A DNA stretch of 64,000 nt, from positions 3,534 to 67,533 of the forward strand of contig JBBRPH010000020.1 in assembly GCA_038228295.1 (NCBI GenBank). Direction: 5' to 3'. Below, in pieces: positions 5,426 to 50,303 of the stretch. The translations under genes and the position numbers were made by a program. Numbering within the stretch: the stretch's first letter is position 1; each line of letters starts with the position of its first letter. The notes beneath the pieces are model-generated. The model made no database searches and was not told the origin of the DNA. It saw only the letters and a list, made by a program, of their open reading frames with translations. Origin of the DNA: Chloroflexia bacterium. Its GTDB lineage: Bacteria; Chloroflexota; Chloroflexia; QHBQ01; JAICKM01.

Positions 5426-6176
5426 CGCTCGGCTCCATCCAGTCCGGCTCTGCCGGGATAGCACGGCCGGCGCTGCGGATCGGGGCGAATGAGCGCCGGT
5501 GGTGGGGGCTGGGGCCGTGGGCGCGTAGCGCGGCCAGGTGCGTGGCGGTGCCGTAGCCTTTGTTCTGGGCGAAAGCGTAGGCGGGCCAGTCGGCCGCGTA
5601 GCCGTCGAGCAGCCGGTCACGGGCCACTTTGGCGACAATCGAGGCGGCGGCGATACTAACGGCGCGCGAGTCCCCGCGGATCAGGCCGAGTTGTGGACCA
5701 GGCCACAGCGGCAAGCGGCAGGCGTCAATTAGCACGAAAGCGGGCGGGGCGGACAAGGCGCGCAGAGCGCGGGTGAGGGCGAGCCGGTTGGCCGCACCCA
5801 TGCCGATGCGGTCGCATAGCGCCGCCGACACCGCGCCCAAGCCTACCGCGCCCTGCCGGCGGATACAGCCGTCCAACTCCACGCGCACGGCAGCCGTGAG
5901 TTGCTTGGAGTCGCGCACAGCGGTCAATTCGGCCAGCGCATCCGCCCAGGCGGGATCCGTGGCGCCGACGGCGCGGATCAGCGCGGCGGGAAAGATTACG
6001 GCGGCGGCCATGAGCGGCCCGGCCAACGCGCCCCGTCCCACTTCATCGCAACCGGCGACCGTGGCGTGGCCCGCGCCCAGCGCAGCGGCTTCATAGTTCC
6101 AATCGGGTATGAGTAAGCCCGGCGGGGCCGGCAGTACGCCGGTGGGCGGCTGCCACGGACGACGCGGCATAGGCAA
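5418..6176 (-). CDS. rnhB: Ribonuclease HII
   Basis: GCDEVGRG, DSKQL, SIAAASIVAKVARD, NKGYGT, HRRSFAP. Confidence 0.95.
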   Translation of the reverse strand: MPMPRRPWQPPTGVLPAPPGLLIPDWNYEAAALGAGHATVAGCDEVGRGALAGPLMAAAVIFPAALIRAVGATDPAWADALAELTAVRDSKQLTAAVRVELDGCIRRQGAVGLGAVSAALCDRIGMGAANRLALTRALRALSAPPAFVLIDACRLPLWPGPQLGLIRGDSRAVSIAAASIVAKVARDRLLDGYAADWPAYAFAQNKGYGTATHLAALRAHGPSPHHRRSFAPIRSAGRAIPAEPDWMEPSDG

Positions 6177-6246
6177 AAGCCTCGCTTAAACAGCGCAGCG
6201 CATGGCCCACTGGGCCATGCGCTGCTGGAGTCGGGCGCGGATGCGC

Positions 6247-6600
6247 TTAGACGAATCGCTTTTCCTTAATGCGCGCGGCTTTGCCGGTGCGCTTGCGCAG
6301 ATAATACAACTGGGCGCGGCGTACCAACCCACGACGGGTCACTTCGATTTTGTCAATGCGCGGCGAGTTGAGCATAAAGGTGCGCTCCACGCCGATGCTG
6401 TGCGAGGCGATGCGGCGCACTGTGAAGTTAGCGGCGATGCCGCCGGCGCGCTTACGCATCACGGTGCCCTCGAAAATCTGGATGCGCTCACGAGTGCCTT
6501 CTACGACTTTCGCATGGACACGCACCGTATCGCCGGGGCCGAAATCCGGGATGTCCGTCCGCAACTGGGACGCACTGACGGCTCGTAACAACTCATTCAT
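6247..6600 (-). CDS. rplS: 50S ribosomal protein L19
   Basis: [36 protein letters not shown]. Confidence 0.97.
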
Positions 6601-25809: not shown

Positions 25810-27150
25810 TTACCGCTTGTTGCCGTTGGCGATGGTTGAAACGACCGTGCCGTTCGCATCGAGCAATTCGGCAGCATCACCTTTATTGCTCCAGATCGCT
25901 CTGCCTGACCCGAAGGAGAAGCCGCCGCTCTCGGTGTGGTGTTCATTGGTGTAGATGCGGATGCGCTTGCCGGCTTGCAAGGTAAAGCCCTGCCAGGTGA
26001 ACTCCTCCCCGCCGTATACGTCACGCAACACCCACCCGTTCAGACTAACGGGACCATTAGTGACGTTATGCAACTCCACGTATTCGTCCGGCTCATTGGG
26101 ATTGATGGCCCCATTGTAGAAGATGTCGGCGATTTCCACCGGGCCGCCGCTAGTAGTTTGACCACCGCTGCTGCCCTGGGCCGGACGTGGGGTGCGCGTG
26201 GGCGGCGTATTCGGCTCCGGCGTTTCGACCAGCGCAGGCGGCAGGTAGGGGTCTTGGGTCGGGACAGCATCCGCGCCGCCGGCGGTGGTGGTGGTTGAAG
26301 CGCGTCCCGTGTCGAGCGCGACCCAGCTGTTGCCGCGTTGCACATCGAAGGCGATGATCGGGTGGATCTCCCAGATGGTGCCGCGGGTTTTGCCCACCTG
26401 GTCAGGGTGTTCCTGATCCATCAGCAGCCAGCCACTGATGCGGACACGGGTACGGCCGTCTACCAGCGGATTGACGCGCGCGAAAGCCCAGCCGGGGTGC
26501 TGCGCGCGCACACGCGGTGTGATTTCGACGACAACCGACTGGGAGCGGTCTTTGGCCGGGCCGTCTACGATCCAGAGATGATTATCTACATCATCGGCGG
26601 CGTGGCAGTTGCAGGACTCCGGCCCCTCTTGCTTGGCCCCGGCTAGGTAGCCTTCCACCTGTATCGGGATGCCTTCGGTGCGAGCCACTGTTGCCGCATC
26701 GGCGGACGACCAGCTAGCGCGGCGCTGCCGCTCAATTGCTTTGGGCCAGGGCAACGCCAGCAAATCGGCGATCTGCACGGGATACCAGGGCGCCGAATCA
26801 ATACGATCTTTACGAACGTTGAGACCGGGATCGCCACCGTCGCCGGTGGATGGACAGCCCTGGTAGGTATTGGACGGCGGCTGCGGGCGGGAGGCGCTGA
26901 GGGGGATGCCTCCCTGCGGGTTGGGCGCGACGTTGCCCCCCAGGTTGCCGCCGATGCCGCGACTGCTGTCGCTGCTGCCGCCCCCCCCGGTGTCGGCGGT
27001 GGGGTTCTGTACAAAGCCACTGCCCCCCGAATTGCCTACCGGATTGGGGGCTACCGGCGTGAGGTTGGGGTCGCTGCAACTGGCAACTCCGCCGGCCAGC
27101 GTCGTAAGAAGTAGCAGCAGGAGCAGCGCGGCTCCCAGGCGTGCGTTCAT
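25810..27150 (-). CDS. Lipoprotein with central OB-fold-like domain and C-terminal lamin-tail domain
   Basis: Lipobox VASC; LTD motifs DEYVELHN..LNGWVL..IWSNKGDAAEL. Confidence 0.8.
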   Translation of the reverse strand: MNARLGAALLLLLLLTTLAGGVASCSDPNLTPVAPNPVGNSGGSGFVQNPTADTGGGGSSDSSRGIGGNLGGNVAPNPQGGIPLSASRPQPPSNTYQGCPSTGDGGDPGLNVRKDRIDSAPWYPVQIADLLALPWPKAIERQRRASWSSADAATVARTEGIPIQVEGYLAGAKQEGPESCNCHAADDVDNHLWIVDGPAKDRSQSVVVEITPRVRAQHPGWAFARVNPLVDGRTRVRISGWLLMDQEHPDQVGKTRGTIWEIHPIIAFDVQRGNSWVALDTGRASTTTTAGGADAVPTQDPYLPPALVETPEPNTPPTRTPRPAQGSSGGQTTSGGPVEIADIFYNGAINPNEPDEYVELHNVTNGPVSLNGWVLRDVYGGEEFTWQGFTLQAGKRIRIYTNEHHTESGGFSFGSGRAIWSNKGDAAELLDANGTVVSTIANGNKR

Positions 27151-27475
27151 AAGAGATGATCCTTTATAGTATTCGGCTCCAAGCACCGCAGGGTATGCCT
27201 ACATCCACGGGCGGTCAGTGTGCGTCACCACGCTGCTCGCCTCTATTGTAACATAAATTGCGGTGCAACCGACAACATTGCGTGTTACGTTTCGCCGACC
27301 CACCGACACACTGACGATTGCCCGTAACTACGGTTCACTATGCGCATTTCTCTAACGGGTGGACTGCGCAGCGGCAGTCGGTTACACACCGCCTTGCTGC
27401 TGCCGGCCGGTTCTACTTAAACAGACCCGGCAGATTATTGGGTGAGACAATATCGAATACAGCATTATAAGGAGG

Positions 27476-28525: not shown

Positions 28526-31429
28526 TCAGCACGCCGTATCCGGCACTTCATTCTCGTCGGCTTCAGCTAATGCTATCGCCGCGTCTAGCGACAGGTTTGC
28601 GCCGGTGGTCCAGGCAGTGGCCCAGGCAGTCGGCGATAGCGCGGCTTCGGCTGCGCGCCGACTGTGCTCGTAGGGTGCTTGGTCGGCAGGGTCGAGCGTG
28701 GTGCCGATAGCGGCCAGCAACGTTTCGGCAGCGGCAAACAGCATGGCGGCGCGGGTCGGGTAACTCGCCGCGACCGCCACTGCACCCAAACCACTCAGGC
28801 ACCAGGCGACGGCGACTCGGCGACCCGTCTCACCGGCCAGTCGTAACGCCTCGCGGAAAAGCGGGTCGGCTTTAGCAAGATCGCCGACTTGCACGGCCAC
28901 GCAGCCCAGGTTGTAGAGCGCTGTGGTGATGCCGTAGCCGTTGCCCAATTGCCGATGCAAGATCAGCGCTTGCTCATAGAAGACGGCGGCTTGCGGATAG
29001 TCGCTGGTGTAGCGTGCCACTTCGCCGAGGCTATTGAGCAGCCAAGCTGTGGTGTCGGGGGTACCCATGCTCGTATTGAGTGCTAGGCTCTCCTCGAAGA
29101 GGGCACGGGCAGCCGGATAGTCACCTTCGGCCAGTGCGGTGCGCCCCAGATGATAGAGACACGTCGTCACACTTCGCCCGTCACCGAGACTACGCACCAG
29201 GCTTAGGCTTTCTTCGAGCCGGGCGCGCGCTTCCGATAAGCGCCCCTGCGCCAACGCGGTGCGGCCCACCTGGAAGAGTGCGGAGGCGACGGCAACACGA
29301 TCGTTCAATGCCCGTGTCAGGCTTAGAGCTTCGTCGGCCAGTGTATAGGCTTCGGCGAGCGCCCCCTGGATGCGGACTTCTTCGGCCAGCGCATCAAGTG
29401 TCGCCGCCAACGCCGGGTGGTTGCCCAGGCTGCGCCAGAGCGTGGCGCTTTCCTCCAGATAGGCGCGGGCCGTGACCGAGTCGGTAGTCAGGGAGCCGAG
29501 GCCAAAGAGGGCTTGGGCGCGTGCCGCCGGATAGGCGGTCGCTTCCGGCGCAGCCAGCATGGTTTCGAGCCAGGCGCGGCCGGCTCGCCACTGCCCGCGC
29601 AACAGCCAGAAGCGCCACAGCGCGCCGGCTAACCGCAGTCCGGCTTCCCGGCCCACAGGATCACCCGCGCACCATTCGAGCGCGGCGCACAAGTTATCGT
29701 CCTCGCTTTGTAGCCGCCGCAATACGCTATCCTGGCCCGCGCTGCGGAGTTGCGGTGCGGTGGCTTCGGCCAACTGCACATACCAGTCGCGATGCCGGCG
29801 ACGGACGGCCGCTGTTTCGCCGGTTTCGAAGAGACGTTCACGCGCGTATTGGTGGATCGTCTCCTGATAATAATAGCGGGTCTGGTCCGGTTGGTCCTCA
29901 ACCAATACCAGCGACTTATTGACCAGTTGCTGTAGCCCATCCAGCACTTCGTATACGTCCAGTTCATCGCCCGCACAAACGGCCTCGGCGGCTTCGAGCG
30001 TCCACCCGCCGATGAACACAGCGAGACGATGGAGGAGAGTGCGCTCTTGGGTACCGAGTAGATCATAGCTCCAGTCAATCAGCGCACGGAGGGTTTGCTG
30101 TCGCGGCAAGGCGGTGCGGCTGCCGCCGGTGAGCAGGCGAAAGCGATCGTCGAGCCGCGCGGCGATACCTTCGACCGGCAGCACCTTGACGCGGGCGGCG
30201 GCAAGTTCAAGTGCCAACGGAATGCCGTCGAGGCGACGGCAAATGTGCAGCACCGCCGGCGCATTGGCCTCGGTAAGCACAAACCCCGGCTGCACCGCCT
30301 GGGCACGCTCAATAAATAAGCGTATCGCTTCGTAGCGCAGCAGCATACCGATCGCCGGCCGCTCCGGCTGTGCGCCGGTGTTGCGCTGGGGCAGGGCCAA
30401 CGACGGCACCCGTAGGGTGGTCTCACCGGCAATGCCCAGTGCTTCGCGGCTGCTCGCGAGGATGCGCACGGTCGGGCAGTTGCGGAGTACGGCCTCGGCC
30501 AGTTCGGCGCAGGCGGTAATCAGGTGTTCGCAGTTATCGAGCAACAGCAGCAGATTTTTGTCGCGCAGCCTTTGGGTGAGCGTGGTCAGCCATGCTACGC
30601 CCAGTTCTTCGCGCACGCCCACGGCGCTGGCGACGGTCGCCGCAACCAGCGCGGGATCCGTTAGCGCGGCCAATTCGATGAACCAGACTCCGTCCGAGAA
30701 GTTGTCGCTTAGTTCGGCGGCCACTTGCAAGCTCAGGCGCGTCTTGCCGGTGCCGCCCGGTCCGGTGAGGGTGAGCAAGCGAGTGGTGCCGAGCAGCCGC
30801 TGCACGTCAGCCATTTCGCGGTCGCGCCCAATAAAGCTGGTGAGTTGTAACGGCAGATTGTGGGCGAAGGCTTCGAGCGAACGCAACGGCGGGAACTCCG
30901 CCGGCAGATCGCTGCTGACCAGTTGGAAGACGCGCTCCGGACGGATAAGGTCTTTGAGCCGTTGCTCGCCCAGATCGCGCAGGCCCACGCCGGGCGGCAG
31001 CGCCGCGCCTAGTGCCTCTTGCGTGCTAAGGGACAGCAGCACCTGTCCGCCGTGGCCCGCCGCCATGATCCGCGCCACCCGGTTGAGCGCCGGGCCGACA
31101 TAGTCGCCGTCGCGCACGGTAGCCACGCCGGTGTGCAGTCCCATACGGACGCGCAAAGGGCCGGTCGCCCCCCAGGCTCCGGTGGTCAGATCGCGCTGGG
31201 CGGTGATGGCGGCCGCCAACGCATCCGCTGCGTCCGTGAAGGCGGCGGAAAAGGCATCGCCGCCTGTCTTGAACACACTCCCCCTATGGCTCTCGATAGC
31301 GGCGCGCAGGATGGCATCGTGACGCGCCAGGGCCACGGCCATCTCCTGAGGGTGTTGCTCCCACAGCCGCGTGCTACCCTCAATGTCGGTGAACAGAAAC
31401 GTAATCAGCGGCGCTGCATCTTCGGTCAT
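28526..31429 (-). CDS. Adenylate/guanylate cyclase - STAND (NB-ARC-like) ATPase - TPR protein (STAND-1)
   Basis: FLFTDIEGST, KTGGDAF, LNRVARI; Walker A GPGGTGKT, Walker B LLLLDNCE; [12 protein letters not shown]; C-terminal TPRs. Confidence 0.93.
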   Translation of the reverse strand: MTEDAAPLITFLFTDIEGSTRLWEQHPQEMAVALARHDAILRAAIESHRGSVFKTGGDAFSAAFTDAADALAAAITAQRDLTTGAWGATGPLRVRMGLHTGVATVRDGDYVGPALNRVARIMAAGHGGQVLLSLSTQEALGAALPPGVGLRDLGEQRLKDLIRPERVFQLVSSDLPAEFPPLRSLEAFAHNLPLQLTSFIGRDREMADVQRLLGTTRLLTLTGPGGTGKTRLSLQVAAELSDNFSDGVWFIELAALTDPALVAATVASAVGVREELGVAWLTTLTQRLRDKNLLLLLDNCEHLITACAELAEAVLRNCPTVRILASSREALGIAGETTLRVPSLALPQRNTGAQPERPAIGMLLRYEAIRLFIERAQAVQPGFVLTEANAPAVLHICRRLDGIPLALELAAARVKVLPVEGIAARLDDRFRLLTGGSRTALPRQQTLRALIDWSYDLLGTQERTLLHRLAVFIGGWTLEAAEAVCAGDELDVYEVLDGLQQLVNKSLVLVEDQPDQTRYYYQETIHQYARERLFETGETAAVRRRHRDWYVQLAEATAPQLRSAGQDSVLRRLQSEDDNLCAALEWCAGDPVGREAGLRLAGALWRFWLLRGQWRAGRAWLETMLAAPEATAYPAARAQALFGLGSLTTDSVTARAYLEESATLWRSLGNHPALAATLDALAEEVRIQGALAEAYTLADEALSLTRALNDRVAVASALFQVGRTALAQGRLSEARARLEESLSLVRSLGDGRSVTTCLYHLGRTALAEGDYPAARALFEESLALNTSMGTPDTTAWLLNSLGEVARYTSDYPQAAVFYEQALILHRQLGNGYGITTALYNLGCVAVQVGDLAKADPLFREALRLAGETGRRVAVAWCLSGLGAVAVAASYPTRAAMLFAAAETLLAAIGTTLDPADQAPYEHSRRAAEAALSPTAWATAWTTGANLSLDAAIALAEADENEVPDTAC

Positions 31430-31435
31430 GTGGCT

Positions 31436-31444
31436 ATTATAGCA
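31436..31444 (-). promoter_or_regulatory. Extended -10 element, probable leaderless promoter of STAND-1
   Basis: Minus strand TGCTATAAT-agccac-ATG, no SD. Confidence 0.6.
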
Positions 31445-31473: not shown

Positions 31474-31506
31474 GCAAAAAACCTCCACCCAATGGTGGAG
31501 GTTTGC
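31474..31506 (-). terminator. Intrinsic terminator of the Gly-rich peptide gene
   Basis: Minus strand aaacctccacc-attg-ggtggaggtttttt, about 22 bp after the stop codon. Confidence 0.85.
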
Positions 31507-31528
31507 GATTCTGTAGCGTGGCGGCCGG

Positions 31529-31870
31529 TTAGGCCATGCCACCGCCGCTGCTGCCGTTGGCTCCCCCCATGCTGCCGCCGCCGCTGCTGCCGCCGACGAT
31601 CACGGTCCCCCCCATGCTGCCACCGCCGCTGCTGCCGTTGGCTCCCCCCATGCTGCCACCGCCGCTGCTGCCGCCGACGATCACGGTCCCCCCCATGCTG
31701 CCACCGCCGCTGCTGCCGTTCATGCTGCCGCCGCCGCTGCTGCCACCCACAACCACGGAGTTACCACCGGTATGAGTGACCGCTACCTGATTCCCATGTG
31801 CGCCAATAGCTCCTAAAGCCATTGCTACAGTGATGGATACAGCCCATTTTTTAACCGATGCGATCTTCAT
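31529..31870 (-). CDS. Small secreted Gly/Ser-rich repeat peptide precursor (six GSSGGG cores)
   Basis: Signal-peptide-like MKIASVKKWAVSITVAMALGAIGAHG; SD GAGGG; own promoter and terminator. Confidence 0.85.
   Translation of the reverse strand: MKIASVKKWAVSITVAMALGAIGAHGNQVAVTHTGGNSVVVGGSSGGGSMNGSSGGGSMGGTVIVGGSSGGGSMGGANGSSGGGSMGGTVIVGGSSGGGSMGGANGSSGGGMA
31532..31760 (-). repeat. Tandem repeats encoding (G/N)GSSGGGSM, including an 81-bp higher-order duplication
   Basis: ccaccgccgctgctgccgttggctccccccatgctgcc at 31539 and 31620. Confidence 0.9.
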
Positions 31871-31965
31871 GGATGTGTTCCCTCTCTACTAGTTGCTGTA
31901 ATCAATAACGATTAACTATTCACGCTGGTGGAGTAACAATCAACTCGGTACTCGCAACCATCGTC

Positions 31966-31994
31966 ATTGTAGCAGAAGCATCGGCTGGAGTCAA
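31966..31994 (-). promoter_or_regulatory. sigma70 promoter of the peptide gene
   Basis: Minus strand TTGACT-17 bp-TACAAT with TGn extension. Confidence 0.75.
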
Positions 31995-32010: not shown

Positions 32011-33357
32011 TTATCTATTACCGGCACCAAAATGTTGTTGCAAAACTTTTGCCACTAATCTGGGGCGAAACAGTATTCCAGGGGGTTTGAGGAGTTGCGT
32101 GACAGCGAATAGGATACCGTGCGCTTTCGCATCGTGCGCGGCTAACATGGTTAGGCGATCCAGATACCAGTGTAGCAGTGGCGACCATTGCGGCTTCTCG
32201 CCCTGTGTTGTGCGATAGCGAAAGTCACGGTTGGTCGCCAGTAGCCACGGAGCCGTATTGTTTTTGGCTAGTTCTTGTTGGAAGTACAAGGCGAAGCCCG
32301 CCGGATCGCGGTGTGTGGTCGTTTGGCTGTAGGTGTGTAAGCATCTGTCCAATACTTTGGCGCTCTGGGCTGCAACGGTAATGCCTTGCGAGTGCTGCGG
32401 ATTGAGGATACACGCCGCATCGCCTAATACGATAAACTGTTCGGGTCGGCTTGATAGCGATTCATAATGACGTAAGCGATTTTCTGTATGCTGATAGCCC
32501 CAAACAGGCGAAATCGGTACCGCAGTGTCTATAAACTGGTATGCCTGGGAACTCGGCAGGCTACGTACAAAATCTAGTAGCGGCTCTTCCTCTAACGGTG
32601 GGTAATCCCCTGCTACTCCGGTGATGGTGGCAAGCCAACGGTTTCCCTCCACACGGGCAATCACACAACCCCTGCTAGCGGTTTCCGTTAGCATCACTTG
32701 CCAATCAGGTGTGCGATCACTTGGGCAAGTGTAATAGCGGCTGACGTAACGCACCAATGAGTTGACAGTGGTCTCTTGGGGTGGCGTGTACCCGAGTGCC
32801 TCTAACCACTTAGGGGCGCGGGAGTAACGGCCACCGGCATCTATTATTAGGTCAGCGTACAGGCTTTCCTCTGCTGCTGCATTTTGACTCCGCCCGCGTG
32901 TCTGCACTCCTATGACAACTGTGTGCGATTCGTCGGCTAGGAGGCTAGTCACCTCTTGTTGTTGCAAGCAGCGGATCTGTGGAGAAGCGAGTACGCGCCG
33001 GCGAATGCTCCACTCCAGTAAATCTCGGCTGTAGTAATGGACATTGTAATTGGTGCCGAAGTATGAACCTGATGCGACAGGGGTTAAAGGCGCAATAGTG
33101 CCGGACCAATCTACTACGGTAGCCCCCGCGTTGAGCAGGTCTGCTTCGATACCTGGAAAAAGCTGTTCTAGGATCAGACGGCCGCCCATAAGGAGCTGAT
33201 GCCGGTGCCGAGCATGAGGTGTACCTTTACGCGGCTGAGGTTCTGCGGGTAGAAAGTCCCGCTCGACAATCGTCACCCGATCAAAGTGATTACAGAGAAC
33301 ATGAGCCGCCAATAAGCCCGCAATACTGCCGCCAATGACGAGCGCGTGGGTGGGCAA
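32011..33357 (-). CDS. FAD-dependent oxidoreductase (monooxygenase/epoxidase-like)
   Basis: IGGSIAGL, VERD, DLIIDAGGR, LGDAACILNP..QGIT; lower GC than flanks. Confidence 0.85.
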   Translation of the reverse strand: MPTHALVIGGSIAGLLAAHVLCNHFDRVTIVERDFLPAEPQPRKGTPHARHRHQLLMGGRLILEQLFPGIEADLLNAGATVVDWSGTIAPLTPVASGSYFGTNYNVHYYSRDLLEWSIRRRVLASPQIRCLQQQEVTSLLADESHTVVIGVQTRGRSQNAAAEESLYADLIIDAGGRYSRAPKWLEALGYTPPQETTVNSLVRYVSRYYTCPSDRTPDWQVMLTETASRGCVIARVEGNRWLATITGVAGDYPPLEEEPLLDFVRSLPSSQAYQFIDTAVPISPVWGYQHTENRLRHYESLSSRPEQFIVLGDAACILNPQHSQGITVAAQSAKVLDRCLHTYSQTTTHRDPAGFALYFQQELAKNNTAPWLLATNRDFRYRTTQGEKPQWSPLLHWYLDRLTMLAAHDAKAHGILFAVTQLLKPPGILFRPRLVAKVLQQHFGAGNR

Positions 33358-33392: not shown

Positions 33393-36158
33393 TCATTTGA
33401 TGAGTGACGCTAACGCTAATTCTAAAGCTTCCTGTAGGGACATTGCCTGCCCGGCGGTCCAAGCAGCTGTCCATTCGGTTTCATTAATCGCAGCCTGCAC
33501 CGCGGCGACATGGGGTGCGTAGGCACCGGCATCGGGGGGATCTAAGTGCGCGTTTATGGCTTGCAAAAGGCCATCTGTTGCTCCGCACAGCTGGGCAGCG
33601 TGAAGCCAATGGCTGCGTTTGGCAGCCACTCCGACTGCTGCCGCCCAGCACATAGCGATGCCTTCTTTGTTGCCCAACTGTTGATATAAGACCATACTCT
33701 CAGTAAATAAGTCTGCCGCTTTGTGGAAATCGCCTTGAGCCAAAGTAATTTGACCAAGGTTGTGTGAAGCTAAAGCCAATCCTGATCTATCCATACAATC
33801 AGTGTATATTCTTAACGCTGATTCTACAACATGGGTAGCGGGTATCAATTGGCCTTGTGCCCGTAGAGCCTCGCCTAAGTTAAGTGCGCTACTTGCAACT
33901 CCTTGCATATTATTTAGCATTCGCCGTAGTTGTAAACTTTCTTCTGCAAGTAATTGTGCGCTGTGGGCATCACCACGATTAAGCGCCAATATACTTAAAT
34001 TATCGAGTACACTAGCGACCCCCGGTTTATGATCTACGACACGATAGAGGGTCAAACTTTCTTCCAGTGCGTTCTTGGCCTCTGCAATGTCGCCCTGTCG
34101 CTGTGCTATCCAGCTAAGGTCCACTAGCGCGCGCGCCGTTGATTTGCGATCACCAATTTCACGGTACAGTTTCACACTAACCTCCAACTGTGTGTGCGCT
34201 TCGACGAAATCGCCTTGACCGGTTGCGAAGCGACCGGCTCCTTCTAGGGCTTTAGCGCGGGCTGCAGGCGTGGCGGGACCGGGGCGATCTAGCGCCGCAT
34301 CCAGCCAAGCGCGCCCTTCGATCCAGTAGCCACGGCGCAGCCAGAATGGTTGGAGCGCGCCGACGAGGCGTAGTTCGGCCTCGATGCCCGCTGGGTCGTC
34401 CTGGCACCATTCGAGGGCGGCGCGCAGATTGTCGTGTTCGAGTTCAAGGCGATCCAGCCATTGTACAGCTTGCTGCTCGCGGATTGGAGCTTCGGCTTCC
34501 TCGGCTAGGGCCAGGAACCAATCGCGGTGGCGAATGCGGACGGCGGCGGATTCGCCGGCTTCGGTCAAGCGGTCGCGGGCATACTGCCGGATCGTTTCGA
34601 GCAGGCTATAGCGTGGGCTGCCGTCGGGTATGGGTTCGACCAGCAGCGACTTGTTGATCAGCTGTTGGAGGCTGTCGGCACAGTTGCCGCTGACAGTCGT
34701 GTCTGTATCGGTCACGGCGGCAGCAGCCTCGGCAGTAAAGCCGCCCGCGAAGACCGAGAGGGCACGTAGTAGGCGACGTTCCGCGTCGGGTAGCAGATCA
34801 TAGCTCCAGTCAATCAGGGCACGCAGGGTTTGCTGGCGGGGTAGGGCGGTGCGACTGCCGCCGGTGAGCAGGCGAAAGCGATCATCGAGCCGGGCAGCGA
34901 TGCCGTCCACCGGCAGCAGGCGTACACGGGCGGCAGCCAATTCAATGGCGAGTGGGATGCCGTCGAGCCGGCGACAGATCTGGGCTACAGCAGGCGCGTT
35001 ATCGGCGGTGAGCCGGAAATGGGGCTGCGCCGCCTGCACGCGATCTAGAAACAAGCGCACCGATTCGACCGTAGCTAACGCGCTAGGGTCGGTGGCCCCG
35101 GTGGGCGGTAGGCTCAGTGACGGCACGCGGTAGACAGCTTCGTTGGGCAGGCTCAACGGTTCGCGGCTGCTCGCCAGCACCGTCACTCCCGGACAGGCGG
35201 CCCGTAACTGCTCGACTAGAGCCGCGCAGGCGGTCAGCACGTGTTCGCAGTTATCAAGCAGCAGCAGCGTGGTCTGCGGCTGAAGATGGGCGATCAGACT
35301 CGCCTCCAACGGCCGTCCGGGTTCCCCTCGCACCCCCAGTACCGTTGCCACCGCTTGAGCCAGCAGCGCCGGGTCGGTCAAAGCCGCTAGTTCGACGACC
35401 CAAACCCCGGTGGGAAAGCGGTCGAGCGATTGGGCAGCGGCTTGCAAAGCGAGGCGCGTCTTGCCGGTGCCGCCGGAGCCGGTGAGCGTGACTAGGCGGC
35501 TCGTCGCCAGCAAGTGTAGCACGGTCGTCAGCGCCTCAGCGCGCCCAATAAAAGGGGTTAATTGGATCGGCAGATTATGCGCGGTGGCGGGCAAGGCGCG
35601 GAGCGGATCGGTTCGGTCAGGCAGGCCCGCGCCGATCAACTGGAATACTCGCTCCGGCTGTTCCAGGTCACGGAATCGCTGTTCTCCTAGGTCGCGCAGG
35701 GTCAAATCGGTCGGCAAGGCTGGGCCGAGCGCGGCAGCGGTTGCGCCGGTGAGCAGGATCTGGTCGCCGTGTCCGGCCCCCAGCAAGCGCGCGGTGCGAT
35801 TAAGCGCCGGGCCGAAAAAATCGCCGGCGCGCTGTTCAGCGGGGCCGCTGTGCAAGGCCATCACTACACCGGGCGGAGCCAGCCCATTATGCATATCCCA
35901 AGAGTGGGTGGCTAGTGCGCGCCCAGCGGCGGCCGCCGCCTGTACTGCCGCCGCCGGCGCAGCAAATACCGCGTAGACGGCACTGCCACTGCGCTTAAAG
36001 ATCGTGCCGCCCACCCCCTGCACCGCCTCGCGCATCAGCCGATCATAGTGGCCCAGGATGCGGCCCATCGTCGCGGGGTATTCTTCCCACAGGCGGACAT
36101 TGCCCACAATGTCGGCAAAGAGGAAAGTTAGGCCGGCGGGTGCGCTTGTTACGTCCAT
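33393..36158 (-). CDS. Cyclase-like - STAND ATPase - TPR protein (STAND-2)
   Basis: FLFADIVG, LNRTARL; GSGGTGKT; LLDNCE; LDGIPLAIELAA; TPRs. Confidence 0.93.
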   Translation of the reverse strand: MDVTSAPAGLTFLFADIVGNVRLWEEYPATMGRILGHYDRLMREAVQGVGGTIFKRSGSAVYAVFAAPAAAVQAAAAAGRALATHSWDMHNGLAPPGVVMALHSGPAEQRAGDFFGPALNRTARLLGAGHGDQILLTGATAAALGPALPTDLTLRDLGEQRFRDLEQPERVFQLIGAGLPDRTDPLRALPATAHNLPIQLTPFIGRAEALTTVLHLLATSRLVTLTGSGGTGKTRLALQAAAQSLDRFPTGVWVVELAALTDPALLAQAVATVLGVRGEPGRPLEASLIAHLQPQTTLLLLDNCEHVLTACAALVEQLRAACPGVTVLASSREPLSLPNEAVYRVPSLSLPPTGATDPSALATVESVRLFLDRVQAAQPHFRLTADNAPAVAQICRRLDGIPLAIELAAARVRLLPVDGIAARLDDRFRLLTGGSRTALPRQQTLRALIDWSYDLLPDAERRLLRALSVFAGGFTAEAAAAVTDTDTTVSGNCADSLQQLINKSLLVEPIPDGSPRYSLLETIRQYARDRLTEAGESAAVRIRHRDWFLALAEEAEAPIREQQAVQWLDRLELEHDNLRAALEWCQDDPAGIEAELRLVGALQPFWLRRGYWIEGRAWLDAALDRPGPATPAARAKALEGAGRFATGQGDFVEAHTQLEVSVKLYREIGDRKSTARALVDLSWIAQRQGDIAEAKNALEESLTLYRVVDHKPGVASVLDNLSILALNRGDAHSAQLLAEESLQLRRMLNNMQGVASSALNLGEALRAQGQLIPATHVVESALRIYTDCMDRSGLALASHNLGQITLAQGDFHKAADLFTESMVLYQQLGNKEGIAMCWAAAVGVAAKRSHWLHAAQLCGATDGLLQAINAHLDPPDAGAYAPHVAAVQAAINETEWTAAWTAGQAMSLQEALELALASLIK

Positions 36159-38279: not shown

Positions 38280-39281
38280 TCACGCGGCTGGACGCGCCAT
38301 ACCGGGCGTGCCGCCCGGTTCCACCAGGCCACCGCTGCTTGCCGGTAGCTCTAGGTCGGGTGCATGGCGCACCGGCAGCCGCCGGGTGGCGACGAGCAGG
38401 CTAATGGCGGCCAACAAGACCAGCCAGCCGCTCCAGCCAAAGATCGTCGCCTGGGCCGTGTCGAACTTTGTACCGGCCTGGGTGAGCAGTACAGCCATGC
38501 CGGCGCTGCCGTTAAACGCGGCGTGGCCGATCACCGCCGGCCAAATGCTGCCGGTCGCCAACCGCGTCCAACCGAACAGGACGCCGAGTAGCACGCAAAA
38601 GACGATGAACAGGCCCACGCCGAGGGTGGGGTGCAGCGGATAGTTGTAGCCTAGCAGCAGGATCGGCGCGTGCCACAGCCCCCAGATCGCCCCCGTGGCG
38701 ATCAGCGCGCGCCATTGGCCGAGCGGCAGTAGCGCAGGCAGCAAATAGCCGCGCCAACCCCATTCTTCGCCAAAGGTGAACAGTCCGTTGATGATCGGCG
38801 CCAGCGGGATCAGGAGCAGTTGGAGGCCGACCAGCGCACCAATCGGCAGTCTGTCGAGCGCTGCTTTGGCGCGCGGCGTAGCATCGAGCAACGCACGGTA
38901 GCCGGAAAAGTCGGCTAGATCCATGTGGTAGAGACCGAACGCGGCACTGACAAACAGGGCGGCAATCACCAGCAGCGGCACGCCCAGCCACGCGGCGGCG
39001 TAATACCAGCCCCAGCGGGTGCCTGCGGCGCCCCAGCGTAGCCCCGTGGCGCGGCGCACGCCGGCCGCCGGCCGGCGTAGGTGCGTCACAATCCCGGTTG
39101 CCACGGCCGGCATAAACATCTGCCCCGCCAACAGTGCGCCCGCCCAGGGTACGCGCAAGCCGTGCCCGCTGAGATAAAATGCGCTGTCCAGCAACCAGGT
39201 CAGTCCAAACGCTAAGGCTATAAATAGACCTACGCCACGCCAATCTACTCGTCGGCTATCACCTTGTAATGCCGCTTCCAT
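38280..39281 (-). CDS. CPBP (CAAX/Abi) intramembrane metalloprotease
   Basis: GEEWGWRG, WGLWH, HAAFN motifs; SD AAGGAGG. Confidence 0.9.
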   Translation of the reverse strand: MEAALQGDSRRVDWRGVGLFIALAFGLTWLLDSAFYLSGHGLRVPWAGALLAGQMFMPAVATGIVTHLRRPAAGVRRATGLRWGAAGTRWGWYYAAAWLGVPLLVIAALFVSAAFGLYHMDLADFSGYRALLDATPRAKAALDRLPIGALVGLQLLLIPLAPIINGLFTFGEEWGWRGYLLPALLPLGQWRALIATGAIWGLWHAPILLLGYNYPLHPTLGVGLFIVFCVLLGVLFGWTRLATGSIWPAVIGHAAFNGSAGMAVLLTQAGTKFDTAQATIFGWSGWLVLLAAISLLVATRRLPVRHAPDLELPASSGGLVEPGGTPGMARPAA

Positions 39282-39319
39282 TAGCGCTCCTCCTTCACGT
39301 CTGCCACAAGGGCTGTCAC

Positions 39320-39370
39320 ATTGTATCATTAAACTAATACAATGATACAATAGATTCGATCCAATGTCAA
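39320..39370 (-). promoter_or_regulatory. Promoter of the CPBP gene overlapped by a palindromic operator
   Basis: Minus TTGACA-17-TATCAT; attgtatcatt-N10-aatgatacaat perfect 11-bp arms. Confidence 0.7.
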
Positions 39371-39499
39371 TAGATCTGCGCGCCGGATGTTTGTTGTAAG
39401 CTGCCCCACGATACGGCAGCATGGTATACTAGGTGGGGAAATGTTCCCGCCACAGTCATGTACGCCCCAGGCGCGGGCTTTTGTTACGAGGGAGAGATA

Positions 39500-43928: not shown

Positions 43929-44205
43929 TCGGCTATACTAGAGCACGAGGCGCCCGCTGTCGGATGCACGTTTCTGGGTTGATAAAACCCGGTATTCCCT
44001 ATAGCTCGTAGCGCACGACCGACCGCCGGGATCGTGCCTCTTACGAACTATAGGTGCGCTGGGCGGGTGGTGCGATCCCTTGTTATCCTCCCGCAGCCCC
44101 GCCGCCGTCACCGGCGGGCTAGGCGCAAGCCGAACTGCCTGGTAGTTTGTATGCCTATTGATAGTGACTGACCCTACACCGTTATCGGCTAGAAAAGGAA
44201 CCATT

Positions 44206-45636
44206 ATGCCTATTACCCACCCCTTACGCTCTATGCGTGGACTGCTGATCGCTCTAGCGGTGGTCGGGGCGGCACTGCCGCCCCTGGCTGCTGCCGCCCC
44301 GACAGCGGTGCCGGCCCATGCGCCGGCCTTCAATTTCGCCGACTCCAGCTTCGATCTGCTGTGGATGCGGACCGATATGGGCGTGGCGAACCATAGCGTA
44401 ACCCGCTCGTGGATCTGGGGGCCGGCTCCCGGCGCGGCGGGGCAAGAAGCCTATGTTGAAGCGCCTGACGGCTCCGGTCGGCGCTTGGTGCAATACTGGG
44501 ATAAGGGTCGCATGGAGGTCAATAACCCGTTGGGCGACCCCAGTGTGCAGTGGTTTGTTACCAGCGGCCTGCTGACGGTGGAGTTGATGACGGGACGGCA
44601 GCAGCAGGGCAACACCGCCTACGTAGAGCGCCCGCCCGCCGCCGTGCCGATTGCCGGCGATGGTAACGACGCGAACGCGCCCACCTACGCCTCATTCCTG
44701 GGTGTGAGCAACACGCCGAAAGGCGAACACCGCCAAGCCAATCGCAACGGCCAGGTCGTCACTGACGTGATCCAAAAGGACGGCAAGACGTTCAGCGATC
44801 CCGGCAAGAGCCAATATCCCGGCCTGCGCGTGACGTATTTCGAGCCGAAGACGGGGCACAACATCCCCGAAATCTTCATGAACTTCCTGACTCAGAGCGG
44901 CCCGACCTTTCAGGCGGGTGCGACCGGCAGCCACGCGCTGTTCGATCCGTGGGTATTCACGATGGGGCTGCCCATTTCCGATCCCTACTGGGCCACCGTG
45001 TTGGTGAGCGGGCAGCCGCAAGAAGTGCTGATCCAGGCATTCGAGCGCCGTGTGCTGACCTATCAGCCGAGCGCCGCCCCCGCGTGGCGTGTGCAGATGG
45101 GTAATATCGGCCGGCACTACTACGATTGGCGCTACGGTGGTAGTTGGACGGACGGTACCGCCGGGCCGACCCCGTTCCCGGCCGCTGCTCCGGCCATGCC
45201 GCACCAACTGGTGATTCCCAAGATCGGAGTGCGCGCTGCGGTCGAGAACCTGGGCGTGGATAAGAGCAACAACTTCGACATTCCGAAAGATCCGCACAAC
45301 GTCGGCTGGTATGCACCCGGCACGCGCCCCGGCGACCTGGGCAGCGCGGCCATAGACGGCCACCTCGATTGGTACGGCATCGGGCCGGTGGTCTTCTGGC
45401 GCTTGGGCGATCTCCAGGTGGGGGACCATTACTGGATGCGCGATGCAAGCGGCCGAGACCGCTTGTTTGTGGCGACCGAGACATCCTCCTGCCCTTATAA
45501 CAACTGCCCCGTCCAGCGCATCTTCACCGCCAACGCGGGCCGCTACCTAAACCTGATCACCTGTCATGGTACCTTCAACCGGGCCGCGAAAAACTATGAC
45601 AAGCGCCTGGTAGTTTATGGGGAATTCGTGCAGTAG
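44206..45636 (+). CDS. Secreted protein with C-terminal class F sortase domain
   Basis: Signal peptide; RSWIWGP/VQYWDKGRME/QAFERRVL domain; sortase IDGHLD, LITC, R. Confidence 0.85.
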   Translation: MPITHPLRSMRGLLIALAVVGAALPPLAAAAPTAVPAHAPAFNFADSSFDLLWMRTDMGVANHSVTRSWIWGPAPGAAGQEAYVEAPDGSGRRLVQYWDKGRMEVNNPLGDPSVQWFVTSGLLTVELMTGRQQQGNTAYVERPPAAVPIAGDGNDANAPTYASFLGVSNTPKGEHRQANRNGQVVTDVIQKDGKTFSDPGKSQYPGLRVTYFEPKTGHNIPEIFMNFLTQSGPTFQAGATGSHALFDPWVFTMGLPISDPYWATVLVSGQPQEVLIQAFERRVLTYQPSAAPAWRVQMGNIGRHYYDWRYGGSWTDGTAGPTPFPAAAPAMPHQLVIPKIGVRAAVENLGVDKSNNFDIPKDPHNVGWYAPGTRPGDLGSAAIDGHLDWYGIGPVVFWRLGDLQVGDHYWMRDASGRDRLFVATETSSCPYNNCPVQRIFTANAGRYLNLITCHGTFNRAAKNYDKRLVVYGEFVQ

Positions 45637-47642: not shown

Positions 47643-50303
47643 TCAAGCCTCAGCAGTAAGGGCGGCTAGTACACTGTCGAGGGTAGTCATGCGCCCGGCC
47701 AGTGCGAAGGCAACGGCATGGTCGAGTGACATCGTCCGGCCCGCCGTCCAAGCAACGGCCCATGCCGACGGGGTCAACCGGGCTTGGGCTAGGGCGACGT
47801 GTTTGTGATAGGCGGCCTGTTCCAGTGGGCGTAGCGGGGTGCCGATCGCCTCGCGCAGTGCCTCGGCGGCTCCGAACAGGCGCGCCGCCTGTGCCGGCGG
47901 ATCTTGGTGCGCGGCAACCTCGGCCAACCCGTGCAAGCTGAGGACCATCAGTGGGCGGTTGCCGAGTTCGCGTAACAGCACCAGGCTTTCCCGATATAGC
48001 GTGCGGGCCTGCTCGTAATCTCGGTCGCACTGGGCCGATTCGGCCAAATTGTATAATGTGTTTGCCAGCCCCCAGCTATCACCTAACTGCTGACGCAGGA
48101 CCAGGCTTTCGCGGAAAAACTGCCTCGCTGCCGCGTAGTGACCCTGATAGCGGGTCACGACACCGAGGTTGTTGAGCGATATGGCGATGCCCGCCGTGTC
48201 ACCAAGCGTGCGCCGTCCGGCCAGGCCGGCCCGGTAGTAACCCTCGGCGCGCTCATAATCGGCTTGGTCAGTGGCGATCAGGCCCAGTGAGTTGAGCGTA
48301 TTAGCGATATTCCAGGGATCGTCCAGCCGGCGAAACAGGGCCAAGCTTTCCTGCAATAGCGTCTCGGCCTGTGCATAGTCACCTTGCTGGCCGGCTAACG
48401 CCCCCGCCACGCGCAACCCTTTGGCCCGCGTGGCGGGGCTGATCGGGCGGGCCAGCGCGCTCTCCAACCAGCGGCGCCCCTCGCTGAGGTGGCCGTGAGC
48501 ATACCAAAAGCGCCACAGCGCTGCCGCTGTCCGCACGGCATCTTCGCTCGCGCCCTCGGCCAGCATCCAGGCCAGCGCGGCGCGCAAATTATCGTGCTCC
48601 TCCTCCAGGCGCTCCAACCAGCGCACCTGATGCACGCCGCGCAACTCCGGCTCGGCGTGCTCGGCCAGCACCTGATAATAGGCGGCGTGCCGGCGGCGTA
48701 GGGTCGGTGCCTGATCGTCGGCGGCCAACCGCTCCGCTGCGTACTCGTGGATCGTGTCCAGCATTCCGAAGCGCGGTTCCCCGTCCGCTCCCTCGCGCTG
48801 TTGTAACAAGCTGTGATCTAGTAAGGCTTCTAATCCATTGTGGAGCGTGGCAGCGGGGGTATCGTTCGCAACGCCGGTGACGGCGGTGGCGGCGCCCGCC
48901 GAGCAGCCACCGACAAAGACGGCGAGTTGCACAAATAGCGTCTGCTCAGTCGGGGTGAGTAGGCGGTAGCTCCACTCCATAGCATCGTGCAGCGTTTGGT
49001 GTCGGGCGGGACGCAGCGGGGTTGTGCCCGTCAGCAGCTGCTGTGAGGCGTGACCGTCGCCCAGGCGGGCCAGCAATTGGGCCGGCGTAAAGGCATTGCT
49101 GCGCGCCGCCGCCAGTTCCAACGCCAGCGGCAGCCCGTCGAGGCGCACGCAGAGGGCGGCGACGGCGGCGGCATTGTCGCCGGTGAGGCCGAAGCTGGGG
49201 CGGGCCAGCCGGGCGCGCTCCACAAACAGGCGTACTGCGGCGGTTTCCAGTAAGCGTTTCGGTGGCGGCAGGTGCTGGAGATCGGGTAGCGCCAACGGCG
49301 GCACGGGTAGCTCTTGCTCGTCCGCCAAGTGCAGCACGGTGCGGCTGGTAACGATTAGGCATAAAAGAGGAGCTGCGGCCAGCAGTTCGGCTAACAGGGG
49401 AGCGGCAGGCAATCCGAGTTCAAAATTATCCAGCACCAACAGGCACGCCTCGGCGCGCAGCCGGTTTTGTAGAGCCGGCCACAACGGAGTAGCGGGGGTC
49501 TCCACCACGCGCAGCGTCCCGGCTAACGCCAGAACTAACCCTTCTGTATCTGTAGCCGCGTTCAAGCTCACGCAGCCTACGCCGGCGGGAAAGCGGTCCC
49601 GTAGCAGCCGCGCTAGGTGCAAAGCGAGGTGTGTTTTGCCCACGCCACCGGGACCGGTCAGCGTCAGCAGGCGCACTCCGCCGCGGCGCAGGGCCGCCAG
49701 CGCCGCGGCCACCTCCGTTTCTCGCCCAATGAGGGGGGTAACCGGCTCCGGCAGATCGAGTGGTTGCCCAGGTAGGCGTGGCTCCGGCAGGCCGTTACCG
49801 GCGGCCTTGACGATGATGCAGGCGAACACTTGCGTAGGCTCGACATCGCCCTGTAGCCACCATGCGCCGAGATCCTGTAAACCTACGGCCGGCGGTAGTA
49901 AGGGCAAGACGGCAGTTACCGCCGCATCGGTCAACAGGATACGGCCGGCAGGGGTGGCGGCTAGTAAACGCCGTGCGGGGGTCGCCTGGACATCTATGTT
50001 CTCGCCGGCCACAACCAGCGCAGTATGCAAAGCGAATGCGGGGGGGATTGATGGGCCTGCGTCCGCGTGGGCGGCTCGGAGCACAGCCAGAGCGACTCCC
50101 AGTGCCACGCCCGCATCGCTGAACGCGGCGCCGACGCTAGGCGCTGCGCTTGGCAACACCACCCCGCCCGCCCTGCCCAGGATCGTGGCAACGTCGATTT
50201 GTTGGCGGCGCAGAGTCGCCGCTGGTGCTTCCTCACCGCTGGGGATCGGCTCGACGTTATGCGCGAATAGAAACGTCACCATCCCGGTTGGCAATTCAGA
50301 CAT
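47643..50303 (-). CDS. Degenerate cyclase - STAND ATPase - TPR protein (STAND-3)
   Basis: [12 protein letters not shown]; GPGGVGKT; VLDNFE; [12 protein letters not shown]; TPRs. Confidence 0.9.

Follow-up and report, generated by a model that had tools for sequence, protein, structure and literature searches.

The window analysed here is a stretch of 64,000 nucleotides from the genome of a Chloroflexota-like bacterium (G000), and its minus strand carries, at 31529-31870 with the stop codon included, a small open reading frame of 113 aa, P0001. A sigma-70-type promoter, TTGACT-17-TACAAT, lies ahead of this frame at 31966-31994 on the same strand, with 10 of 12 matches: the -35 element TTGACT occupies positions 31994-31989 and is followed, across a 17-bp spacer, by the -10 element TACAAT at 31971-31966, with a TG at 31974-31973. 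It should be noted that this promoter match is not significant by itself, as one was found where 0.5 were expected. Transcription from the inferred start would give a 5'UTR of about 90 nt (31871-31960, minus strand), which holds a purine-rich Shine-Dalgarno-like sequence, GAGAGGGA, at 31886-31879 of the minus strand. Behind the frame, folding revealed an intrinsic terminator (31475-31503, minus strand) that consists of a 10-bp GC-rich stem, a 4-nt loop and a U tail; the hairpin reaches -21.7 kcal/mol (z = -4.3), and none of 200 shuffled sequences folded as well. A simple terminator scan found no terminator at the P0001 locus, and the likely reason is that the stem continues, by A-U pairing, into the T run. 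No Rfam family reached the threshold at this locus, 5'UTR included, and the sole Rfam match in the searched stretch (E 0.15) lies outside the UTR, over the terminator (31476-31547). All of the elements that a sequence-only reading had described here, namely the frame, the promoter, the Shine-Dalgarno site, the signal sequence, the repeated units, the higher-order repeat and the terminator, are present on the minus strand at the positions it had given.

The predicted protein starts with MKIASVKKWAVSITVAMALGAIGAHG/NQ..., and its first 26 residues (31793-31870, minus strand) resemble a Sec-type signal peptide by inspection, hydropathy and AlphaFold2. The n-region is basic (K2, K7 and K8), the h-region is a 16-residue hydrophobic stretch (WAVSITVAMALGAIGA), and A-H-G precedes N27, with small residues at positions -3 and -1. 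The maximum 15-aa Kyte-Doolittle hydropathy of the N-terminus is 1.99, and P0001 passes a home-made heuristic hydropathy filter for signal peptides. Judged by inspection only, this N-terminus fits the layout of a Sec signal peptide with a predicted cleavage by SPase I. Inspection also led us to reject P0001 as a lipoprotein (no lipobox Cys), as a Tat substrate (no twin-Arg) and as a substrate of sortase or other C-terminal sorting (no LPXTG or CTERM motif at its C-terminus), and we likewise decided against a leader of the type IV pilin kind.

The predicted mature part of 87 aa (31532-31792, minus strand), as characterised by composition and AlphaFold2, contains 37 Gly, 18 Ser, 9 Val, 6 Met and 5 Asn; Gly and Ser make up 64% of it. 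It has no charged, aromatic, Pro or Cys residues, no obvious cleavage site and no recognisable protease site. The six GSSGGG units counted in the sequence-only reading are indeed there, and so are the two contexts in which they stand, behind (S/T)V(V/I)VG and behind N or AN; five of them read GSSGGGSM, and the final one reads GSSGGGMA. AlphaFold2 predicts a helix at residues 5-23 and, where the hydrophobic segments SVVVG, TVIVG and TVIVG lie, short strands that span residues 38-41, 62-65 and 89-92, three in all, and leaves the remainder unstructured, but with a mean pLDDT of 50 from a two-sequence alignment these strands are to be taken as a hint only.

Downstream of P0001, on the same strand, lies a gene (STAND#1; 28526-31429, minus strand) for a protein of 967 aa in which Pfam recognises a Guanylate_cyc domain, a STAND NTPase and TPRs. 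The stop codon of P0001 and the start of STAND#1 are 99 bp apart, and these genes are very probably transcribed separately, a terminator and then a promoter lying between them. STAND#1 has its own conserved TGnTATAAT at 31444-31436, and because this -10 element is placed six bases ahead of the ATG, the STAND#1 mRNA is suggested to be leaderless. A second gene, STAND#2 (33393-36158, minus strand), encodes a cyclase-like, STAND and TPR protein of 921 aa that is 53% identical to STAND#1. The TPR_12 matches have E values of 7.9e-39 in STAND#1 and 8.3e-21 in STAND#2, and there are matches to TPR_MalT too. We consider both genes as genomic context of P0001 and as candidate partners at most. The family to which they belong is hugely expanded in the genus, with 6-68 matches per genome at E <= 1e-50, and to our knowledge it has no known ligands. 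The upstream neighbour of P0001 is a gene for an FAD-dependent oxidoreductase (32011-33357, minus strand; FAD_binding_3 in Pfam), which shows weak matches, far below the cut-offs, of the QhpG (E 6.6e-6), LodB (E 3.5e-5) and halogenase-like kinds. Two GT2 glycosyltransferases and a CPBP/CAAX protease are also encoded upstream.

We compared the locus with that of the closest relative, an unpublished genome (G006) in which ClpX is 94% identical; the conservation described below could thus partly reflect a short divergence time. The syntenic counterpart of P0001 in this relative is an ORF of 133 aa, P0002, with a protein identity of about 50%. The -35 element is identical in 5 of 6 positions and the TGn plus -10 element in 7 of 9, although the flanks diverge, and the terminators share 26 of 29 bases, the two differences in the hairpin both being in the loop. 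Identity is 41% in the 5'UTR (36 of 88 aligned bases) and 203 of 341 bases in the coding sequence. In both proteins the n-region is basic, hydropathy over 15 aa peaks at 2.0, and positions -3 and -1 are occupied by small residues; both contain exactly three [ST]V[IV]V segments, 24-30 residues apart; and P0002 shares the Gly and Ser content of 64% in its mature part. The repeat differs in sequence, in length and in regularity, as the relative has a period of 78 bp with 3.2 copies and 75% matches, compared with 81 bp, 2.3 copies and 99% in P0001, and as the unit is mostly GSSGGSH there and GSSGGGSM here. This difference between the species fits a spacer rather than a recognised peptide. The adjacency to STAND#1 is kept in the relative, where the orthologue of STAND#1 is 79% identical (TPR part 74%, cyclase 82%, NTPase 83%). 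The FAD gene is absent there from its place upstream of the small ORF, where a gap of only 137 bp leads to the next STAND gene, and the best match to the enzyme, with 41% identity, is encoded on a different contig. As judged from this comparison, the gene for the FAD enzyme is outside the conserved unit.

These observations bear directly on the proposal of the sequence-only reading that P0001 is a multi-core precursor from which the GSSGGGSM units are released as pheromones or, after modification (for example on Ser), as RiPPs. A RiPP precursor would draw some credit from the weak similarity of the upstream FAD enzyme to protein-modifying flavoenzymes, from the glycosyltransferase and protease genes nearby and from the resemblance of Gly/Ser-rich repeats to the Gly/Ser/Cys-rich substrates of the microcin B17 type. 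However, the FAD gene is missing from the locus of the relative, and the supposed cores are not conserved between the species, while the three strands between them are. A Pfam scan of the 25 neighbouring ORFs (26 when P0001 itself is counted; 16.7-53.9 kb, about 15-22 kb each way) revealed no RiPP maturase, RRE or peptidase-ABC exporter; genes of the YcaO, Lan, radical-SAM, RRE, ATP-grasp and C39-ABC kinds were all absent from these ORFs. Moreover, a Sec-type leader would carry the peptide away from cytosolic maturases, P0001 has no Cys, its mature part has neither Trp nor charged residues, and conserved flanking motifs for recognition or cleavage are absent. We therefore regard a RiPP precursor as extremely improbable, and nothing found here supports the cutting of P0001 into pheromones or modified peptides.

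P0001 and its counterpart differ at 36, 40 and 61 sites in the first, second and third codon positions, respectively, with a pN of 0.335 and a pS of 0.615, but these values come from a single relative and from an alignment of repeats that was guided by the protein, a procedure that favours the coding frame. The antisense frames are likewise open in both species. The frame, the start and the selective pattern thus appear to be kept as in a protein-coding gene, and the evidence for coding is to be read as moderate only, because it depends on one relative and on that protein-guided alignment.

The coding evidence has to be weighed against the view that there is no functional protein at all, the ORF being incidental to the young expansion of a repeat within an intergenic transcript rich in GC, which would be either non-coding or translated into an inert product, or the repeat being in part an assembly artefact. 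The region from 31537 to 31720 on the minus strand is a higher-order tandem repeat with a Tandem Repeats Finder score of 361, and the 99% identity of its copies indicates a very recent duplication. Several frames remain open on both strands within the P0001 repeat region. Furthermore, in the Logan contigs of run X1, which are an independent assembly, a break falls within the repeat and 31506-31607 is left uncovered, so that the copy number of the repeat is without independent confirmation; this gap bears solely on that number. The restriction of the gene to two of seven genomes of the genus, with no match elsewhere, and the absence of the exact protein from public protein sets would be expected under this view as well. 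However, the Shine-Dalgarno-like site, the ATG and the signal-like N-terminus lie outside the repeat and are kept in the relative despite diverged nucleotides, differences are most frequent at third codon positions with pN below pS, and the two species have the three hydrophobic segments in the same number and with conserved spacing, in spite of different loops and repeat periods. On balance, we consider the absence of a protein function unlikely. In agreement with the sequence-only reading, which had taken the ORF to be a real autonomous gene, P0001 is very probably a separately transcribed, lineage-restricted small gene. This view is supported by the anatomy of the gene, by the conservation of its promoter, terminator, frame, N-terminus and number of strands, and by its restriction to two genomes.

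The two genomes of the genus with a P0001-type gene are the closely related G000 and G006. When the genomes of 41 relatives were searched in six frames, 18 gave a match at E <= 1, of which only that in G006 combines synteny with the build of P0001; the others (E >= 0.0017) are in long unrelated frames or contain stops, and no Gly-rich small ORF was found in the loci fetched from those other genomes (L003 and L005-L016). A DNA pattern for GSSGGSHGSSGG matched only the same two among 301 genomes of the class, and none of the 90 metagenome stretches that it also matched has the P0001 build. The P0001/P0002 alignment gave 143 pattern matches in genome contigs and 512 in metagenome contigs, none of which was confirmed. 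At the protein level, P0001, searched by word index in 5.8 billion protein clusters, gave no match at E <= 0.01 among 8000 scored candidates, a profile of both proteins found none at E <= 0.001 among 1.84 billion protein representatives, and the ESM Atlas held no usable match to P0001. Neither protein matched a family in Pfam (E up to 0.01 and 1) or in NCBIfam (E up to 1), and chaplin, curlin, KGG and TIGR03000 families were accordingly not among the matches. These blanks in protein databases are weakened by the finding that the exact sequences of P0001 and P0002 are absent from a collection of 15 billion proteins, since relatives may be uncalled too. The same absence bears out the expectation of the sequence-only reading that gene callers may skip the ORF. 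A non-exhaustive literature search found no published description of such a protein.

The reading that we favour, with a probability of roughly 0.4, is that P0001 is a young, fast-evolving, exported and disordered 'glycine-loop' protein that stays whole and associates with itself at the cell envelope. A Gly-rich structural or amyloid-like surface protein had been named in the sequence-only reading as the alternative to a multi-core precursor, and it now takes first place. The product would enter the Sec pathway through its N-terminal signal peptide, and the exported part of 87 residues would be intrinsically disordered and uncharged, with Gly/Ser-rich 'glycine loops' interrupted at intervals by Met, or by His in the sister species. 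We infer that the protein would remain whole after export and that its three beta-branched hydrophobic segments could act as 'stickers', pairing into an intra- or intermolecular beta-sheet, with the Gly/Ser loops as flexible hydrophilic spacers. At the cell envelope, the outcome may be a coating or a matrix component that is silk-like, amyloid-like or gel-like. Through duplication and homogenisation the repeats would evolve fast, a mode of change that would keep their composition and the number of strands while their sequence is not kept.

Similar designs are known from other organisms. Plant class I GRPs are glycine-rich structural proteins that bear a signal peptide, and the tails of keratin and loricrin form the 'glycine loop'. 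P0001 resembles these proteins in the secretion signal (known for GRPs and predicted here), in quasi-repetitive Gly/Ser loops with occasional hydrophobic anchors, and in being of low complexity, probably disordered and fast-evolving in repeat number. However, there is no homology, and P0001 is a bacterial protein of 113 aa with beta-branched pentapeptide anchors instead of aromatic ones and without cross-linking residues (Tyr, Lys, Gln-rich). Chaplins, curli CsgA and FapC, on the other hand, are functional amyloids or surface-coating proteins that bacteria export through Sec. With these, and with silk-like block designs, P0001 shares its small size, its putative secretion via Sec and its repeated strand-loop units, and its hydrophobic strands rich in Gly and Val/Ile may be able to stack as in functional amyloids. 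It differs from them in having no Pfam or NCBIfam match and loops of 19-22 residues that are nearly pure Gly/Ser; in addition, no nucleator, secretion or sortase genes adjoin P0001, and the formation of amyloid is a proposal.

The position of P0001 next to a TPR-bearing protein of cytosolic type raises the question of an RRNPP-like system, in which the exported protein would be cut outside the cell into short peptides that are re-imported, bind the adjacent cyclase/STAND/TPR protein or proteins and set their cAMP output. The sequence-only reading had likewise raised the possibility of flanking receptors, one for each variant. According to PMC10075063, the RRNPP signature comprises five criteria, namely a propeptide of 10-100 aa (RRNPP_detector), export via Sec, a receptor of about 250-500 aa, TPRs and neighbouring genes, and two of the five, the TPRs and the adjacency, are seen here, the latter also in G006. 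P0001 also resembles the RRNPP(A) cassettes of Bacillota (PMC10075063, PMC11343458) in that a small gene with a putative Sec-type signal and internal repeats is the direct neighbour of one that encodes a TPR protein of cytosolic type, and in phage Rap-Phr systems a single propeptide may contain pheromones duplicated in tandem (PMC11343458). However, by these criteria, the neighbours are too long with 967 and 921 aa, and so are the ORFs with 113 aa here and 133 aa in G006; the partner is an adenylate-cyclase/STAND/TPR protein, the ORF is of low complexity and the organism is Chloroflexota-like. The somewhat higher divergence of the TPR part of STAND#1 compared with its cyclase and NTPase speaks for such a system, but the repeat unit of P0001 is of low complexity and differs between the species, whereas the putative receptor is 79% identical. 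Only 1 of the 10 paralogues with a STAND/TPR NTPase core in G000 has a signal-peptide-like small ORF alongside, as compared with 52 of 1110 other long frames, and a Gly-rich small ORF is likewise missing from all loci of such paralogues that were fetched from the other genomes of the genus (L031-L040). Together with the uncharged mature part, which offers no recognisable protease site, and with the probable separate transcription of the small gene and STAND#1, these findings leave us with little credence in an RRNPP-like system. The more specific proposal of a peptide-signalling cassette outside Bacillota, in which repeat-derived peptides would be sensed by the TPRs of the adjacent, putatively leaderless protein, seems very improbable. 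It is only through such a signalling link to the adjacent cyclase/STAND/TPR gene that the locus would open a major question: a secreted multi-copy signal would then be coupled to cAMP synthesis in a Chloroflexota-like bacterium, and it would be the first ligand of the very large cyclase-STAND-TPR family.

The composition of the loops brings up another candidate function, that of an extracytoplasmic metal buffer or chaperone in which flexible Gly/Ser spacers would present regularly placed Met or His for the binding of Cu(I), Ni, Zn or other metal ions of the soft or borderline class. Met and His are metal ligands, and the only recurring residue of the loops other than Gly and Ser is Met in P0001, whose mature part has 6 of them, and His in the counterpart, again with 6. 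Repeats of the (GSSGGSH)n type and Cys/His-rich variants also occur behind signal peptides in metagenome proteins with the TIGR03000 domain (plancto_dom_1). P0001 and P0002 have the signal-like N-terminus and the repeats in common with these proteins, but not their conserved C-terminal domain of about 75 aa, and the similarity is compositional only. Potential ligands are sparse, with about one Met per 9-14 residues, classical MxxM, HxxH or Cys motifs are absent, and no metal-resistance or transport gene adjoins P0001, the nearest being an OFeT_1 iron-permease-like ORF 8 kb away. As metal binding would also leave the conserved hydrophobic strands unexplained, we consider this function quite unlikely.

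If the favoured reading of an exported glycine-loop protein is true, P0001 would be a very young gene, overlooked by gene callers, that nevertheless has complete and conserved expression signals, and it would apparently have arisen when a signal peptide and a GC-rich repeat of the trinucleotide type were joined. Among extracellular proteins, it would be a bacterial addition to the class described as 'glycine-loop' or silk-like, and it would suggest that real small secreted proteins of Chloroflexota-like metagenome-assembled genomes go unseen when low-complexity filters are applied. ORFs of 50-400 aa with a Gly and Ser fraction above 0.5 and a Gly fraction above 0.3 number only 5 in the whole genome. 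The best unfiltered tblastn match to P0001 within its own genome, with 54-63% identity over the repeats, is a cytosolic protein with GSSGGSH, GSSGGGSM and HDSGE repeats (contig C1, 106348-106758). Its combination of GSSGGSH and GSSGGGSM units with acidic residues would suit metal binding. Apart from one metagenome contig, it occurs only in G000 and G006, as P0001 does; unlike P0001, it is acidic, lacks both a signal peptide and hydrophobic strands, and stands in another genomic context. The occurrence of the same repeat units in this cytosolic protein indicates that the units are not specific to an extracellular role.

The ORF P0001 (31529-31870, minus strand) encodes 113 residues (MKIASVKKWAVSITVAMALGAIGAHGNQ...) with six GSSGGG units, five of which read GSSGGGSM and the last GSSGGGMA. 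These units alternate in context, following either a short hydrophobic segment (SVVVG, TVIVG, TVIVG) or N or AN, and Tandem Repeats Finder reports a minus-strand repeat at 31537-31720 with a period of 81 bp, 2.3 copies and 99% matches. The sole independent assembly (Logan contigs) is broken within this repeat, and the copy number thus rests on one assembly. One Logan contig over 31618-32200 carries A>G (plus strand) at window position 31658, the third position of codon 71 and 41 bases from the contig end, which may be a strain variant or the result of confused repeat copies. On the same strand as the ORF, the promoter scan returned TTGACT-17-TACAAT at 31994-31966 (10 of 12 matches, with TG before the -10), this being one site against about 0.5 expected by chance in the stretch, and inspection showed a purine-rich GAGAGGGA 8 nt before the ATG. 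A hairpin 3' of the stop codon (10-bp stem, 4-nt loop, U tail) folds at -21.7 kcal/mol (z = -4.3), a value equalled by none of 200 shuffles. It is absent from the list of the consensus terminator scan, probably because A-U pairs at its flanks absorb part of the T run. The sequence-only reading had described a six-unit ORF of 113 aa with repeat, promoter, SD and U-tailed terminator, and all of these elements were found.

The closest genome available, G006, has a ClpX that is 94% identical, as compared to 79-88% in three other relatives; the best named ClpX matches of the source genome are Chloroflexota metagenome-assembled genomes at 66-70%. In G006, which is unpublished and the only relative contributing comparative evidence, an ORF of 133 aa (P0002) lies on the same strand directly upstream of the orthologue (79% identical) of the downstream neighbour, STAND#1. 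DNA alignment of the two loci showed identity at 5/6 positions of the -35 and 7/9 of the TGn plus -10. The terminators are identical at 26/29 positions, the two differences within the hairpin both falling in the loop. Divergence is greater in the 5'UTR, with 36/88 positions identical, and in the coding region, with 203/341. Over 113 aligned codons, differences by codon position numbered 36, 40 and 61, the third position being the richest, and a Nei-Gojobori count gave a pN of 0.335 and a pS of 0.615; this evidence is only moderate because the alignment is protein-guided and lies within repeats. An incidental or functionless young ORF would be an unlikely explanation of the locus. The antisense frames are likewise open in both genomes, but the sense frame alone combines an ATG with a ribosome-binding site and with an N-terminus outside the repeat. 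On these sequence features, P0001 is very probably a real protein-coding gene.

The small ORF had no match in a word search over 5.8 billion protein clusters, and a HMMER profile of P0001 and P0002, run against all of 1.84 billion representatives, likewise returned nothing. The ESM Atlas gave no usable match, Pfam and NCBIfam gave no family, and scanning genome and metagenome contigs by pattern plus tblastn gave no confirmed match. The exact sequences of both small ORFs are also absent from a 15-billion-protein collection, which means that gene callers or the source sets miss them and makes the blanks in protein databases weaker. Six-frame searches, which are independent of gene calling, covered 41 relatives' genomes, of which G006 alone gave a match that agreed in both synteny and build. 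Likewise, among 301 genomes from the class, a DNA pattern for GSSGGSHGSSGG occurred in just 2, namely the source genome and G006. As judged from these searches, the small ORF is an orphan.

P0001 and P0002 are about 50% identical as proteins. In both, a hydrophobic stretch (15-residue hydropathy peaking at 1.99 and 2.05) comes after a basic n-region, small residues precede the likely cleavage point by inspection, and Gly and Ser make up 64% of the predicted mature part, which in P0001 holds no charged, aromatic, Pro or Cys residues. The number of [ST]V[IV]V segments is three in each protein, at intervals of 24-30 residues. AlphaFold2, at low confidence (pLDDT 50) on the two-sequence alignment, predicted a helix spanning residues 5-23 and strands spanning 38-41, 62-65 and 89-92, with the rest unordered. 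The GSSGGGSM unit has mostly become GSSGGSH in G006, where an additional acidic motif follows each strand and the repeat has a period of 78 bp with 75% matches (81 bp and 99% in P0001). Such conservation of the export signal, the Gly/Ser composition and the number and spacing of the beta-branched hydrophobic pentapeptides, while the loops turn over, is expected of a spacer-and-sticker protein, and as far as two sequences indicate it is unlike what a precursor would show if its repeats were the product to be recognised. The product would be exported through its Sec-type signal, which would then be cleaved, and the chain would remain whole as an intrinsically disordered 'glycine-loop' protein, self-associating at the cell envelope through its three short strands in a silk-like or amyloid-like design. 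We tentatively favour this reading, at a probability of about 0.4; the Gly-rich structural or amyloid-like protein, put forward initially as a fallback, has thereby moved to first place on the strength of its composition and of strands that are kept as loops change. In plain terms, this is an ordinary-looking small, probably secreted low-complexity protein from an orphan gene that is very probably real. Possibilities outside the readings named here retain a minor share of the probability.

Without filtering, the strongest match to P0001 within its own genome is an acidic repeat protein of about 136 aa without a signal peptide (contig C1, 106348-106758, minus strand; 6001-6411 of the fetched locus L017), which is 54-63% identical over the repeats. 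It has four GSSGGSH-GSSGGGSM-GSSGGSH-DSGE repeats, a good AGGAGG ribosome-binding site and no match in Pfam or NCBIfam. G006 has an orthologue-like ORF where one of its contigs begins, and there is another on the metagenome contig L165; the protein may serve under stress, either in the manner of a hydrophilin or by binding metal. Many metagenome proteins (L177:255-920, minus strand, and others at L174, L132 and L183) combine a signal-peptide-like N-terminus, Gly repeats of the type (GSSGGSH/Y/W)n or rich in Cys/His, and a C-terminal TIGR03000 domain (plancto_dom_1), confirmed for L177 with an E-value of 2.4e-19. Unrelated secreted proteins thus share this low-complexity unit. These related repeat proteins, together with the regularly placed Met of P0001 and His of its G006 counterpart, would suit a metal buffer, but this role leaves the strands unexplained and seems rather improbable.

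The start codon of STAND#1 (28526-31429, minus strand; 967 aa; Guanylate_cyc, STAND NTPase and TPR by Pfam) is the ATG at 31429 and not an upstream TTG. Six bases lie between this ATG and the end of the gene's own TGnTATAAT element, which falls within 31427-31444 on the minus strand and is kept in G006; STAND#1 is therefore a unit separate from P0001, and its mRNA is probably leaderless. Upstream of P0001 on the minus strand lie a FAD-dependent oxidoreductase (32011-33357; Pfam, with weak, sub-threshold similarity to QhpG, LodB and halogenases) and STAND#2 (33393-36158), a 921-aa Pfam-assigned protein of the same build as STAND#1. QhpG and LodB are protein-modifying flavoenzymes. In G006 the upstream TPR gene and the small ORF are 137 bp apart with no oxidoreductase gene between them, which points to a local indel; the G006 gene most similar to the oxidoreductase gene is 41% identical and lies on a different contig. 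Pfam detected no RiPP maturase, RRE protein or peptidase-type exporter in the 25 neighbouring ORFs (26 with P0001) at 16.7-53.9 kb. The proposal of an autonomous gene is supported by the signals and frame conserved in G006; its extension to a pheromone or RiPP precursor lacks support, as the core is not kept and no maturase lies among the ORFs scanned, and a multi-core RiPP precursor appears extremely improbable.

RRNPP-like peptide signalling through the adjacent TPR protein is also quite improbable. Two of the five signature criteria given in PMC10075063, TPR and adjacency, apply to this locus, but the sizes of both propeptide and receptor do not agree with them, and for Sec secretion the signal-like N-terminus was judged by inspection only. 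According to PMC11343458, phage Rap-Phr systems are known to carry tandemly duplicated pheromones within a single propeptide. The adenylate-cyclase/STAND-NTPase/TPR family is strongly expanded: at E <= 1e-50 the source genome has 11 matches and other genomes of the genus have 6-68 each. It has three members in the window (28526-31429, 33393-36158 and 47643-50303, all minus strand). A home-made signal-peptide filter found a small ORF with a signal-like N-terminus in the flanks of 1 of 10 NTPase-core paralogues in the source genome, this one being P0001, against a background of 52 of 1110 other long frames.

Beyond the oxidoreductase gene and STAND#2 lie two GT2 glycosyltransferase genes and a CPBP/CAAX intramembrane protease gene (38280-39422, minus strand). 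The latter, together with genes for a 458-aa protein with a terminal Lamin Tail Domain (25810-27186, minus strand) and a 492-aa protein with a C-terminal sortase domain (44158-45636, plus strand), all from the family scan, are envelope-related genes of the window, with no link to the small ORF implied.
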